Shown here: positions 4,614 through 8,831 of the stretch, one piece after another | Numbering within the stretch: position 1 is the first letter of the stretch | How the letters are laid out: each line of letters starts with the position of its first letter | Assembly: GCA_965207735.1 (NCBI GenBank) | Contig: OZ242296.1 | Location: 3,456,001 to 3,520,000, forward strand | From: Candidatus Versatilivorator sp. | GTDB lineage: Bacteria; Acidobacteriota; Terriglobia; Versatilivoradales; Versatilivoraceae | Direction of reading: 5' to 3' | Length of the DNA stretch: 64,000 nucleotides | Notes under the pieces: model-generated | Seen by the model: the letters and a program-made list of their open reading frames with translations, nothing else | What the model was told of the DNA's origin: nothing | The model's database searches: none | Translations under genes and position numbers: made by a program

Positions 4614-5393
4614 ATGAAGGCGACACTCACCGGATTGCGTGGCTTGATGCTGGACCTGGACGGCACTGTCTACGAGGACAACCGCCTGATCCCCGGAGCC
4701 GCCGAAGCCATCGCCGCCCTCAGGGAGCGCGGGTTCCGGCTTCGCTTTGTGACCAACACCACCAACAAGCGACGAGAAACCATCCGGGACAAGCTCCATG
4801 TCCTGGGCATCGAATCCGATGCCTCGGAGATATTCACGGCTCCGGTGGCAGCCAGCCTGATGCTGCGGCGTCATCCGGAGGCCCGCTGCTGGGTGGTCAC
4901 CCGGGGCGACTCCATCCAGGAGTTCCAGGGCCTGAGACTGGACGAGGACCAGCCCGATTTCGTAGTTCTGGGCGATCTGATGGAAGGGTTTACCTTTGAG
5001 CTGCTCAACCGCGTCTTTCGCAAGCTGATGGACGGCGCGGAGCTGATTGCCATGCAGAAGAACCGCTACTGGCTGACCCGGGGGGAACTCACTCTGGATA
5101 TGGGGCCGTTCGTTGCCGCCCTGGAGCACGCCACCGGACGCATGGCCCGGGTGGTGGGCAAGCCCTCGCGGGAATTCTTCCACCTGGCGCTTTCGCACCT
5201 CGGACTGGCCCTGTATCAAGCGGTCATGGTGGGGGACGACTGGGAATCCGACATCGCCGGCGCCCAGCGCGCGGGCCTGCGAACGATCCTGGTCCAAACC
5301 GGCAAGTATCAACCCGCAGACGAGAAAAATCTCGATCCGCAACCGGACGGCGTCATCGAAGGCCTCGGCCGCCTGCCGGAGATCCTGGCTTGA
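4614..5393 (+). CDS. HAD-IIA hydrolase (LHPP/HDHD2-like)
   Basis: LDLDGTVY, FVTNTT, GKPSREFF, MVGDDWESDIAGA, LVQTGKY. Confidence 0.9.
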   Translation: MKATLTGLRGLMLDLDGTVYEDNRLIPGAAEAIAALRERGFRLRFVTNTTNKRRETIRDKLHVLGIESDASEIFTAPVAASLMLRRHPEARCWVVTRGDSIQEFQGLRLDEDQPDFVVLGDLMEGFTFELLNRVFRKLMDGAELIAMQKNRYWLTRGELTLDMGPFVAALEHATGRMARVVGKPSREFFHLALSHLGLALYQAVMVGDDWESDIAGAQRAGLRTILVQTGKYQPADEKNLDPQPDGVIEGLGRLPEILA

Positions 5394-5649
5394 CATAGAC
5401 GACTTTAAGGCCGTTCCCCATGGGTCCGCTGGTCATGTCGCCAAGCCCAACCGGCGCAAGCTCATTATTCCTCCCACCACCAACACTGCCAATTCGCCGA
5501 ACGACGGCGACGCCTTCGGCAACTGGAAGGGTAAATGTGCACGATTGAGAGCATTTCCGGGACCACGCTTCGTGACCAACCGGGCAAAAGGAAACAAATC
5601 ATCCTGGACTGAAGGTGCCGATCATTCAGTGTGCTAATGGCGTGAAATA

Positions 5650-5664
5650 TTCGCTGTTAGCGAA
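5650..5664. promoter_or_regulatory. Palindromic operator candidate upstream of the retron promoter
   Basis: TTCGCT-gtt-AGCGAA, perfect 6-bp arms, 7 bp upstream of the -35 hexamer. Confidence 0.5.
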
Positions 5665-5671
5665 ATAAGTC

Positions 5672-5700
5672 TTGACTTCCAGCTCCGAAATGTTTATTTT
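5672..5700 (+). promoter_or_regulatory. Sigma70-type promoter of the retron locus
   Basis: TTGACT (5672-5677), 17-bp spacer, TATTTT (5695-5700), directly upstream of the structured RNA. Confidence 0.6.
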
Positions 5701-5729
5701 CAAGATGTTTGGAAAATACGGAAGTAAAA

Positions 5730-5948
5730 GTCATCACACCCTGGGTTGGCTTCGGTCAACCCGAGGAGGGGAAACCCTCTACCGCTTACTGCAGCAATCA
5801 CCCTCTCTCCTCAGTGGTGGTCGCTGAGCGAAGCGAGACCCAACCAATGACCCGTTGGGTCTCTGACACATTTGGATTTAGCTGCCACGTTCCGTCTTTC
5901 TGTTGGTGATGACCTCATTCCGCAATTCGGCGGGTGAGCAACAGAAAG
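5730..5948 (+). ncRNA. Retron msr-msd-like structured RNA
   Basis: a1/a2-like IR gtcatcac 5730-5737 / gtgatgac 5906-5913; hairpins 5743-5762 (C-UUCG-G loop), 5766-5779 (GAAA loop), 5810-5828, 5835-5863 (10-bp perfect stem), 5914-5938; stem 5896-5905/5939-5948; lies upstream of a retron RT. Confidence 0.8.
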
Positions 5949-5959
5949 GAGGTGAGAAA

Positions 5960-6127
5960 ATGCTCTCACTGGGAACCAAACCGTGGCGGCGGCGACCGAA
6001 GAGCGGGGGTAAGCAGTGTAGATGGCTACGTAATCCGCGCCTGCTTCGGACAGCTATCCTTATAGGCATCTGGGCCTATCGTCTATGGAGGATTTGCCGG
6101 GCGCTTAATGGTATTTTCGGAGGCTAG
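5960..6127 (+). CDS. 55-aa cationic, hydrophobic small protein; candidate retron effector (type VI small protein)
   Basis: Strong SD AAGGAGGTGA before ATG 5960; MLSLGTKPWRRRPKSGGKQCRWLRNPRLLRTAILIGIWAYRLWRICRALNGIFGG; lies between the ncRNA and the HTH gene. Confidence 0.7.
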   Translation: MLSLGTKPWRRRPKSGGKQCRWLRNPRLLRTAILIGIWAYRLWRICRALNGIFGG

Positions 6128-6168
6128 GTCGCTTTCCACTGTGTCAAATTACAACCGGATTGGTAAGG

Positions 6169-6504
6169 ATGGCTGTTGACGTACTATCAGAAGCACTTCG
6201 GCTGATTCGAGTGTTTCACGATGTAAAACAAAAACAATTGGCGGAACAATTGGGTATCTCGAAGTCGTATCTTTCAGAGATCGAACGAGGTAAGAAAATA
6301 CCCTCCATTGAGGTCATTCAGAAATACGCCGCTGAGTTTCAAATGCCAGTTTCGTCCATTCTTTTTTTCGCCGAGCAGTTGGTCGACCCAAACCGGAAAC
6401 CTCCAGATGCCGACCGTGTAAGAGGAATCATTGCCGGAAGGGTCATCAGTTTCCTGCAGTTCATCGAAGCAAAAGCGAAAGAACATGCCGAAGAAGCGCA
6501 CTAA
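6169..6504 (+). CDS. XRE/Cro-C1 helix-turn-helix protein, retron-associated
   Basis: LRLIRVFHDVKQKQLAEQLGISKSYLSEIERGKKIPS; overlaps the RT start by 20 nt. Confidence 0.9.
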   Translation: MAVDVLSEALRLIRVFHDVKQKQLAEQLGISKSYLSEIERGKKIPSIEVIQKYAAEFQMPVSSILFFAEQLVDPNRKPPDADRVRGIIAGRVISFLQFIEAKAKEHAEEAH

Positions 6505-7375
6505 ATGCTACGCGGAGCAGGATAGCCCCTTCTATAAGCTCCGCTCGAAGGCGAAACTTGCAAATCTTCTCTTTCTCAACGTCGATAAATTAGAGTTTCT
6601 TGCGGAATCCGAGGACCTATACTTCGATTTCCCCAAGAAGAAAATGAGTGGCGGTTTCCGCCCGATCAGTGCGCCGCGTGCCGATCTCAAGATTGTACAG
6701 AAGAGAATTGCAGACTTGCTTCAACGCATCACTCCGCCGGATTATCTGTTTGCGCCGGTTTGCGGGCGTTCTTATGTGGACAATGCCAAGCGGCACTTGG
6801 GAGCCAGCTCAGTTCGACACCTAGATATCGAGGATTTCTTCCCGAGTTGCACCGCAAATAAAGTCATATGGTTTTTTCGAAAGCGAATGGAATGCTCCCC
6901 GGACGTTGCAGTACTCCTTCGTGGCGTTGTCACAAGGCGTGGTTCGTTGCCACAGGGCAGCCCATGCAGTCCGATACTAGCGTATCTCTGCTATGTGGAT
7001 ATGTGGGAAGAAATTGAACGCCTAGTAGGCGAGAGTAGTTGCCAACTGAGTGTCTACGCCGACGACCTGACAATTTCAGGAGAAATGGTCCCGGAGAGTC
7101 TTATTTGGGAAATAAAACAAATACTGTTCCGACACGGTTTCCGACACAAACGCAGCAAGGAACGGAGCAAGATATACAAACCTACAAAGATAACCGGTGT
7201 AATCCTCAATGGAAACCAGCTTCTCGTGCCGAACCGGCAGCACCAGAGACTCTATCAAGTTCGTCAGAAGTTGAAGGTTTCCCGCTCGCCTGAGCACCGC
7301 AGGCAGCTTAAGGCACAACTGGTCGGGCGAGAATCACAGTTCCGCCAGATTGTCGGAACTCCGCAAAGTCAGTAG
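6485..7375 (+). CDS. Retron-type reverse transcriptase (296 aa)
   Basis: Region X NAKRH (NAxxH), LDIEDFFPS, LPQGSPCSP, catalytic YADD, region Y ITG (VTG-like); no maturase, endonuclease or RNase H extension. Confidence 0.93.
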   Translation: MPKKRTKCYAEQDSPFYKLRSKAKLANLLFLNVDKLEFLAESEDLYFDFPKKKMSGGFRPISAPRADLKIVQKRIADLLQRITPPDYLFAPVCGRSYVDNAKRHLGASSVRHLDIEDFFPSCTANKVIWFFRKRMECSPDVAVLLRGVVTRRGSLPQGSPCSPILAYLCYVDMWEEIERLVGESSCQLSVYADDLTISGEMVPESLIWEIKQILFRHGFRHKRSKERSKIYKPTKITGVILNGNQLLVPNRQHQRLYQVRQKLKVSRSPEHRRQLKAQLVGRESQFRQIVGTPQSQ

Positions 7376-7649: not shown

Positions 7650-8831
7650 ATGAATCCTGAAACGAGTCCGTTCAGCCCCGGACAACCCGTGCCGATTGAG
7701 TTTTTTATTGGGCGCATCCGTGAGGTCGAGCGTCTGCGGGGCATGGTAAGGGCTAGTACACAAGGCAAATTCCGAATCGGATTTGTCAGCGGAGAACGGG
7801 GCATCGGCAAGAGTTCCCTGGCGTCGTTCGTGCGCTACCTTTCAGAGCACGAGAGCCAAGTCGCAGGATGGCATGTCTTTCTCGGCGGCGTTGAGGATTT
7901 GAATGAGATGCTTCGAAGGACCTTCGATCGCCTGCTGAAGGAAAGCATGGACAAACCCTGGCATGAGCAAATCAGGAACTTTTTTGGAAACCACGTGCGT
8001 CAAGTGGGTCTGTTCGGGGTCACTTTGGAGTTGAATCTCCAGGAAAGCGACTGGTCAACGCTCGCCCATGATTTCGTGCCGACCGTCAGGCGGCTTCTGA
8101 ACGAAATCAAGGACCAGAAGCGTGCGCTATTTCTCATCCTGGATGACATCAACGGTCTCGCGGGTTCCGAAGTTTTCGCCAACTGGCTGAAAAGCACCGT
8201 GGACGAGATCTCCACGTCCCAACAGAAAATGCCTCTCTGCATTCTAGTTGTCGGCCTTGAGGAGAGGCGCCAGGAGCTGGTGTCGAAGCAACCGTCTCTT
8301 GCGCGCGTCTTCGAGTTGATCGACATCGCCCCCTGGTCTGACGATGAAGCCATGGACTTCTACCGGAAGTCATTCGACGCCGTGGGCGCTAAGGTTGCCG
8401 ACAGCGACATGCGCCAACTCGTCCGATTCACCGGCGGACTTCCTGTTCTGGCCCACGAGATCGGCGACGCCGTCTGGCGCACGGCCGAGGGTCCGGAAAT
8501 CGAGTCAAAAGAAGTATGGGAAGGAATCTTGACCGCAGCCGAGGTGATCGGCCGGAAACTGCTGCAACCCCAAGTGTTCAGGGCAATTCGCAGTGAGCGT
8601 TACCGATCCATTCTTCGAAAAATGTCGGGCGCGCCCCGGATGAGCTTTGGAAGATCAGAACTCATGGGACGTCTGTCGGACAACGAAAGAAAGGTCATGG
8701 ACAACTTCCTGCGACGCATGAAACGGCTCGGAGCGCTGGAAACCGATCCCGAGGTCAAAGGTGGATACCAATTCCCCAACCTCCTCCACATGCTTTATTT
8801 CTGGATTGAATCCCAGCGGATTTCCCGATGA
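7650..8831 (+). CDS. Stand-alone AAA+/STAND-like P-loop ATPase with probable C-terminal winged helix
   Basis: SPFSPGQPV...FIGR N-terminus, Walker A GERGIGKSS, Walker B LFLILDD, TGGLP motif. Confidence 0.85.
   Translation: MNPETSPFSPGQPVPIEFFIGRIREVERLRGMVRASTQGKFRIGFVSGERGIGKSSLASFVRYLSEHESQVAGWHVFLGGVEDLNEMLRRTFDRLLKESMDKPWHEQIRNFFGNHVRQVGLFGVTLELNLQESDWSTLAHDFVPTVRRLLNEIKDQKRALFLILDDINGLAGSEVFANWLKSTVDEISTSQQKMPLCILVVGLEERRQELVSKQPSLARVFELIDIAPWSDDEAMDFYRKSFDAVGAKVADSDMRQLVRFTGGLPVLAHEIGDAVWRTAEGPEIESKEVWEGILTAAEVIGRKLLQPQVFRAIRSERYRSILRKMSGAPRMSFGRSELMGRLSDNERKVMDNFLRRMKRLGALETDPEVKGGYQFPNLLHMLYFWIESQRISR

Follow-up and report, generated by a model that had tools for sequence, protein, structure and literature searches.

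The locus at positions 5650-7375 of the window, by which the whole analysed stretch of 64,000 nucleotides is meant, raises the question of whether it encodes a complete retron, to which kind such a retron belongs, and how its RNA, its small protein (SP), its helix-turn-helix (HTH) protein and its reverse transcriptase (RT) would act together. A sequence-only reading had listed a promoter, a structured RNA, a 55-aa open reading frame, an HTH gene and an RT, and all of these parts are present. The three frames (SP, HTH and RT) are open, and the motifs, the palindrome and the RNA helices are intact. The features are as follows:

5650-7375, + strand: type VI retron cassette (palindrome, promoter, structured RNA, SP, XRE-HTH and RT)
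5650-5664, no strand: palindrome TTCGCT-GTT-AGCGAA, putative operator for a dimer of the HTH protein, lying 7 nt ahead of the -35 box
5672-5700, + strand: predicted sigma70 promoter TTGACT-17-TATTTT; a -35 box starting with TTG lies 5-9 nt past the palindrome in 52 of 70 loci
5707-6146, + strand: predicted hybrid RNA (non-coding part and SP mRNA), about 440 nt with putative ends; fold z -3.8
5709-5736, + strand: 5' leader, predicted to touch the riboregulator arm at three short stretches (helices 1-3)
5743-5780, + strand: two msr-like stem-loops, putative RT recognition site (helices 4 and 5)
5783-5864, + strand: putative msd template of 82 nt, a long variable stem and the hairpin 5835-5863
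5865-5876, + strand: 5' arm of an a1/a2-like inverted repeat, pairing with 6135-6145
5881-5990, + strand: riboregulator arm, closed by 5881-89 with 5982-90
5960-6127, + strand: SP of 55 aa, putative toxin; conserved in a 46-row alignment
6135-6145, + strand: 3' arm of the inverted repeat, putative primer end, pairing back to 5865-5876
6169-6504, + strand: Cro/C1 (XRE) HTH protein of 111 aa; HTH_3 at E 8e-14, PADLOC HTH_VI
6485-7375, + strand: type VI retron RT of 296 aa; PADLOC RT_VI at E 1e-93, frame open and catalytic motifs intact
7650-8831: AAA/STAND-like ATPase gene, accessory cargo of the same hotspot, which four congeners have without the retron

The NAxxH, YADD and ITG motifs reported from the letters are all read in the RT, as NAKRH at aa 100, YADD at aa 191 and ITG at aa 236. 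The residues N100, H104, D114, Y191, D193, D194, T237 and G238 are invariant in 17 homologues, and all 13 matches among PDB sequences are retron or unnamed RTs. The passages of Mestre 2020 (PMC7736814) on type VI retrons describe a clade 3 RT, a Cro/C1 HTH gene upstream of it or overlapping it, and a small protein gene upstream of the HTH gene. In the analysed locus the HTH gene overlaps the RT start, as had been noticed before, the two sharing 20 nt; the SP gene precedes the HTH gene, and RT_VI is the top profile of the RT. The PADLOC check agrees with the type VI assignment already proposed, the best profiles being RT_VI with 311 bits (runner-up 152) and HTH_VI with 107 bits (E 9e-32; runner-up 35). 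The RNA, SP and HTH are also kept beside homologous RTs. On sequence grounds, the locus almost certainly belongs to the type VI retron family as an Acidobacteriota member; it is of the short-SP lineage and, by analogy, likely defends by abortive infection. The word "uncharacterised", used for it earlier, is right for this member only, whereas the family itself has already been worked out experimentally in two systems, Retron-Vpa2 and Retron-Sen3. The expectation that standard annotation would miss the system largely held: the Rfam search of the locus RNA gave no match, and the PADLOC SP_VI models miss the SP.

The homologues were drawn from GTDB (9 loci), plasmid and phage records (18), viral contigs and metagenomes, the metagenome loci being the best 80 of 417 matches and biased toward HTHs resembling that of the window. 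An HTH was present in 179 loci, and the 161 with at least 620 nt upstream formed 92 clusters; the Vpa2 locus was not among the plasmid matches. In the RT tree, which like the second tree used here is a quick search with SH-aLRT values only and no bootstrap, the window RT falls among the short-SP RTs (33 rows, SH-aLRT 96) and is separate from the lineage with SPs of 77-81 aa (98). A TIR-domain gene is located downstream of the RT in three alphaproteobacterial plasmid loci (L015, L017 and L019).

The AT-rich character of the DNA was confirmed, with a GC content of 50.3% for the locus versus 61.9% for the genome, an equally low value being found in 0.2% of 2991 genome tiles. The placement "between housekeeping genes" proved incorrect, the right neighbour being the accessory AAA/STAND-like ATPase. 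This ATPase was rejected as a part of the system, given that it is found at the same site without the retron in G001, G002, G007 and G008. The RT is present in 2 of 13 congeners, in 0 of 27 further relatives searched, and in 0 of 400 further genomes of a phylum sample at E 1e-25. One congener (G009, locus L001) holds the retron intact at the same site with an RT identity of 83%, and the other (G001) carries a frameshifted RT at a different site. In four of the 13 congeners (G003, G006, G010 and G012) the site is empty, the HAD gene lying 30-70 bp from the AMP-binding gene, and the remaining ones carry different cargo between these two genes; the site is a variable insertion spot. Because the RT is frameshifted in one congener and IS elements interrupt the homologous loci L008 and L009, retron decay is common. 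In G002 a pentapeptide-repeat-like gene takes the place of the retron (L207:419-1876). The approximately 250 nt upstream of the palindrome (window 5394-5645) are single-copy in the genome and common to L001, and the loose ends at window 5386-5393 in sequencing runs X3 and X4 are other alleles following the HAD gene.

At a distance of 1.1 Mb, the host genome contains another type VI retron, which belongs to the long-SP kind (L208:1580-3474; G000:C1 about 4582080-4583970). Its 81-aa SP matches SP_VI, its HTH matches HTH_VI, and its RT scores 234 bits with RT_V and 226 bits with RT_VI; the RTs of the two retrons are 30% identical. An imperfect palindrome, TTGACT-CAG-TGTAAA, precedes a -35-like box of this second locus, and a viral scan with its RT found nothing.

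The structured RNA was formerly described as a unit of about 220 nt upstream of the reading frame. Its folding is indeed well beyond that of shuffled sequences (z -5.4 for 5715-5990, with 0 of 200 shuffles equal), but the predicted unit covers about 440 nt and reaches into and past the frame, with helices extending into the SP gene and beyond its stop codon. In 24 close-clade homologues, which were hand-picked and from which the structure itself was derived, so that the figures favour it, the 71-pair structure is paired in 93.8% of cells and shows changes on both sides in 49 pairs (shuffles reaching this: 0 of 500); the two-sided cells number 229 versus 56 in shuffles, and slid controls are 36-53% paired. 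Within this set, the msr-like helices 4 and 5 are paired in 97% and 100%, with two-sided changes in 10 of 12 pairs, and the stem covering the ribosome-binding site (RBS), 5896-5905 with 5939-5948, is 98.3% paired, with two-sided changes in 9 of 10 pairs. It is followed by a start-codon hairpin at 5951-5970. The putative template has a length of 78-94 nt across the 24 homologues (82 in the window), and its DNA copy folds with z -3.4 and the loop GGTCATTG. On this comparative evidence, the predicted RT-binding hairpins, the template, the stem over the SP RBS and the SP frame all lie on a single RNA of about 440 nt. The promoter claimed before is present as a promoter-like site; a motif scan by itself does not exceed chance (2 sites where 1.5 are expected), but the location is conserved among relatives.

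The a1/a2-like duplex has a cognate mean of -9.4 versus -6.7 kcal/mol with permuted partners, and 0 of 300 permutations were as good. An alternative a1/a2 stem, 5875-81 with 6124-30 and a branching G at 6131, was rejected because 6127-33 pairs with 5991-97 with better covariation. Across the 24 loci no branching G is conserved at or after 6141-6149, the highest count being 15 of 24 at a position within the stem, and since the 3' arm is without a conserved G after it, canonical branch priming is not evident.

Two direct repeats link the template with the riboregulator arm: repeat 1 (CAATGAC, 5845-51) in the loop of the msd hairpin 5835-5863, and repeat 2 (TGATGAC, 5907-13) in a bulge of the RBS-covering stem. 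In the window they are identical at 5 of 7 nt, and their pairing would include two wobbles. The leader contacts the same arm at three places, 5709-12 with 5976-79, 5719-23 with 5890-94, and GTCATCA at 5730-36 with repeat 2; these helices (1, 2 and 3) are paired in 94.8, 86.6 and 89.9% of cells in the 24 homologues. Over the first six positions of the repeats in 24 loci (144 cells), mismatches number 0 between the DNA copy of repeat 1 and repeat 2, 1 between leader and repeat 2, and 7 between leader and repeat 1. Pairing of the leader with repeat 1, the nested choice of RNAalifold, is possible but a poorer fit, with 83.3% of cells paired as opposed to 89.9% for repeat 2. In the leader, a 5-mer that could pair with both repeats was counted in 17 of 24 close loci, where 2.9 were expected, and in 33 of 54 distant ones, where 7.2 were expected, a count from which seven clusters without a reliable SP call were omitted and in which some matches may be other pairings. 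The triple recurs with lineage-specific sequence, and by this comparison a 5' leader complementary to both repeats is conserved. The pairing of leader and repeats is not described in the text of Zhang 2025, although it may be drawn in its Fig S4, the comparison having covered the text. In the folding model, blocking 5902-5913 leaves the Shine-Dalgarno (SD) sequence paired (0.21), whereas blocking 5896-5913 opens it to 0.69; as it opens only when the whole 5' strand 5896-5913 is blocked, the 7-nt pairing alone may not suffice.

The 55-aa frame is present as reported, and is preceded by GAAAGGAGG; its SD, earlier called strong, is for the most part paired in the prediction (mean unpaired 0.21). 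The SP contains 13 K/R and no D/E, with a basic N-terminus and an amphipathic C-terminal helix whose hydrophobic moment is up to 0.68. Substitutions in codons 21-50 are distributed 140/101/211 over the codon positions among 12 relatives, and a basic, amphipathic frame of 48-70 aa lies upstream of the HTH gene in most RT-bearing clusters. No Pfam, NCBIfam or PADLOC match was obtained for the SP. The PADLOC SP_VI models match neither it nor 7 relatives, and two of them match the 81-aa SP of the second retron. The best ESM Atlas matches (0.84) are unnamed clusters and serve as a lead only. The pattern K15/I39/F43/F45 of the Vpa2 SP fitted none of the collected SPs by eye. In run X3, contigs break at CTAG (window 6124-6128) with inverted-repeat loose ends, and from these ends, the SP stop codon of that population appears to be occupied by an IS or MITE.

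The HTH protein has the recognition helix SKSYLSEIE at 6259. The usual start codon of the family reads GTA here (6181-83), as it also does in a contig from a second study, so that the in-frame ATG at 6169, four codons upstream, must start the protein, a shifted start with a weak SD; L001 has both ATGs.

The palindrome at 5650-5664 was absent from the sequence-only reading. It was first spotted by eye in eight loci, which are themselves within the following counts: among 75 clusters that have both an RT and the canonical helix, 70 match it at 10 or more of its 12 arm positions, a level reached by 0 of 73 control windows and by 0.7% of shuffles. Among the five clusters missing it, L008 lost the RNA to an IS element, and L017, L124 and L159 keep variants with 9 of 12 positions in place. 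It was found in none of six HTH-only clusters with other helices. Its sequence is kept across Acidobacteriota, Pseudomonadota, Cyanobacteriota and Bacillota, and Staphylococcus, Acinetobacter and Serratia loci carry it too (11/12). At 10 of 12 arm positions the information is at least 1.5 bits, and the spacer is free (0.09-0.31 bits). Locus L216 was not taken into the set. The perfect copy is unique in the host genome; a host-wide regulon was rejected, as 43 of 51 near-matches are one sequence within a multicopy element. This element, identical at 43 places in G000, reads like a transposase gene and suggests a recent IS expansion.

Of eight RT clusters with a diverged helix, the near-canonical L176 keeps the palindrome and the other seven (L023, L024, L047, L055, L064, L090 and L068) are without it at the promoter, the match in L090 lying about 60 nt further upstream. 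The seven are all type VI retrons carried by prophages, and their recognition helix is decayed. They comprise L068 and a single clade of the other six and lie nested among carriers, so that in this tree the joint loss of palindrome and helix would rest on one or two events. Five of them have, by eye, an extended -10 promoter of the form TG-n-TATGAT. A symmetric variant, ACT-N3-AGT, accompanies V or I at position 1 of helix 3 in 3 of 3 loci and is found in 0 of 75 with other residues; these variants fall in two separate lineages, and the specificity switch rests on about two events. The text of PMC3351150 describes R35 of C.Esp1396I, the first residue of helix 3, as reading a guanine of a GACT-N3-AGTC site, a residue matched to the HTH helix position by eye. 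From this pattern of conservation and covariation, the palindrome is likely the operator of the HTH protein. Repression rather than activation is slightly favoured because the spacing between palindrome and -35 box varies from 5 to 9 nt.

Further sites resembling the operator were noted. A second palindrome-like TTCGC...GCGAA stands directly before the HTH ribosome-binding site in two plasmid loci (L015:1170 and L017:1171). In an Enterococcus plasmid (L210) the half-sites are inverted, AGCGAA-TTTAA-TTCGCT, upstream of the -35 box, possibly as two adjacent operators. Inside the msd, TCGCT-G-AGCGAA at window 5821-5832 resembles the half-sites, and GCGAA stands at this place in 15 of the 24 close loci; a role of the msDNA as a decoy for the HTH protein is conceivable.

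The mechanism proposed for the window retron follows Retron-Vpa2. The text of Zhang 2025 (10.1101/2025.10.22.683967) assigns Vpa2 to the "Large" lineage and describes a hybrid RNA of about 470 nt with a hidden RBS, a full-length msDNA of 86 nt, three RNA arms, and 7-nt direct repeats, one in the msd loop and one in the riboregulator, the msDNA triggering toxin translation. At rest, the leader would pair with repeat 2 and two neighbouring segments, helping to keep the RBS arm shut, and the RT, HTH protein and RNA would form a complex with little msDNA, as demonstrated for Vpa2. By analogy with that system, phage recombination proteins would let msDNA of about 82 nt accumulate, whose 5' loop GTCATTG, complementary to repeat 2, would displace the leader and open the RBS. 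The SP, cationic and amphipathic, would stop growth, probably at the membrane, to judge from Vpa2 and from its composition. An HTH dimer would bind 5650-5664 at its own promoter, and the HTH protein likely also restrains the RT. A translational switch of the SP triggered by msDNA, as in Vpa2, is a probable reading by this analogy. It also enters the best explanation overall, held with fair confidence: an abortive-infection type VI retron in which msDNA unlocks a toxic SP and the HTH protein restrains the RT and binds the palindrome. Beyond the window, type VI HTHs may well regulate their own operon through a family-wide TTCGCT-N3-AGCGAA (ACT-N3-AGT with V or I), together with a lock-and-key leader and perhaps 3'-end priming.

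A different mode of action has been demonstrated for Retron-Sen3, which has the same gene order and a predicted sequestered RBS. According to the text of Garcia-Rodriguez 2026 (10.64898/2026.04.27.721009), Sen3 belongs to cl2075, with a 79-aa SP bearing an N-terminal extension; its msDNA (112 and 145 nt) is constitutive, the SP is controlled post-translationally, and the trigger is RecBCD inhibition. Since Sen3 makes its SP constitutively in spite of a predicted hidden RBS, such an RBS is no proof of a translational switch. Applied to the window, msDNA and SP would both be constitutive, the HTH would be a protein antitoxin, the RNA a scaffold, and phage attack on end-resection would free the SP. 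The helix moment of the window SP, near the value of about 0.6 given in the preprint for Sen3 (the scales may differ), would suit this. It is nevertheless unlikely: the SP is 55 aa long, without the N-terminal extension or an SP_VI match, the RT stands outside the long-SP lineage, and the direct repeats with their covariation fit the Vpa2 switch. Moreover, in the host genome, rated 100% complete, RecC had no match and RecB and RecD were below the cut-off. An AddAB-like pair is present, and with this pair and no RecBCD found the trigger cannot literally be RecBCD inhibition.

The palindrome could also be an insulating terminator hairpin or a host-factor site, the retron reading itself remaining right. 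The A/T runs which flank it in many loci, as in intrinsic terminators, would agree with this. That its sequence and not just its symmetry is kept across phyla around a free 3-nt spacer, that it is unique in the genome and followed by no T run in the window, and that it is gone from the promoter in 7 of 7 decayed-helix clusters and covaries with a helix residue, make this improbable. Still less probable is a decaying, silent relic, as the shifted HTH start, the SP stop codon broken by an insertion in one other population and the frameshift in one of two congener copies might suggest; against it stand three open frames with intact motifs, operator and helices, the intact L001 at the same site, and a G-U pair in the first stem-loop that is G-C in another strain. 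The operator-controlled, msDNA-triggered retron is the preferred reading.

The comparative result, that is the likely family-wide operator and the leader detail, weighs more than the locus itself. In its passages on type VI, Mestre 2020 (PMC7736814) only guessed at transcriptional regulation by the HTH, and both mechanistic preprints, in their texts, treat it as RT partner or antitoxin; the strings "operator", "palindrom" and "transcriptional" occur 0 times in the main text of Zhang 2025 or Garcia-Rodriguez 2026. No report of a type VI retron operator was found in the literature searched, which covered texts outside figures, supplements and subscription journals. According to the text of Zhang 2025, the Vpa2 constructs were placed under an added T7 promoter, which could have masked operator control. 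With a precise site of 15 bp, of which nature supplies both losses and variants in specificity, DNA binding by the HTH protein can be tested, and the decayed-helix prophage retrons offer natural controls for the operator model. If the model is true, a single protein couples control of the RT to transcription of the RNA that bears the toxin; the leader, in the lock-and-key scheme, would keep hold of repeat 2 until msDNA of the same sequence takes its place; and the 3' end of the RNA itself may serve as primer for reverse transcription, with no branching G involved. The leader/repeat triple and the lack of a conserved branching G bear on the opening of the RBS by msDNA and on the priming by the RT, and a host in which no RecBCD was found probes the generality of the reported triggers.

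Compared with known systems, the window retron shares with Vpa2 (RT WP_069548583.1) the gene order, the three-arm hybrid RNA across the SP (about 440 versus about 470 nt), the 3' end pairing back and YADD, as well as an RBS and AUG in two stem-loops and 7-nt direct repeats, these last compared with the text of Zhang 2025 alone. The SP has 55 aa in both systems and that of the window is likewise outside the four SP clusters, and the template measures 82 versus 86 nt. The kinship rests on architecture and SP size and not on sequence identity. Unlike Vpa2, it resides in an Acidobacteriota host with an AddAB-like pair, and it has a putative operator palindrome and a leader complementary to the repeats, which the text of Zhang 2025 does not tell of Vpa2. 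With Sen3 it shares the SP-HTH-RT order and a transcript over the SP with long-range pairing beyond the stop codon; it differs in its short SP without the N-terminal extension of the Sen3-like (cl2075) SPs (55 versus 75-79 aa) and in a host without RecBCD found. The second retron of the genome looks nearer to the Sen3 kind. A tandem OL/OR arrangement as in controller (C) proteins, with a second operator over the -35 box, was rejected as not general (a second GCGAA in 7 of 79). With the restriction-modification controller proteins C.Esp1396I and C.BclI the HTH protein has the XRE fold in common, C.BclI being among its PDB matches (E 9e-6), and so is a palindrome with a 3-nt spacer beside its own -35 box; in contrast to them, its C-terminal half differs and its partner is an RT.
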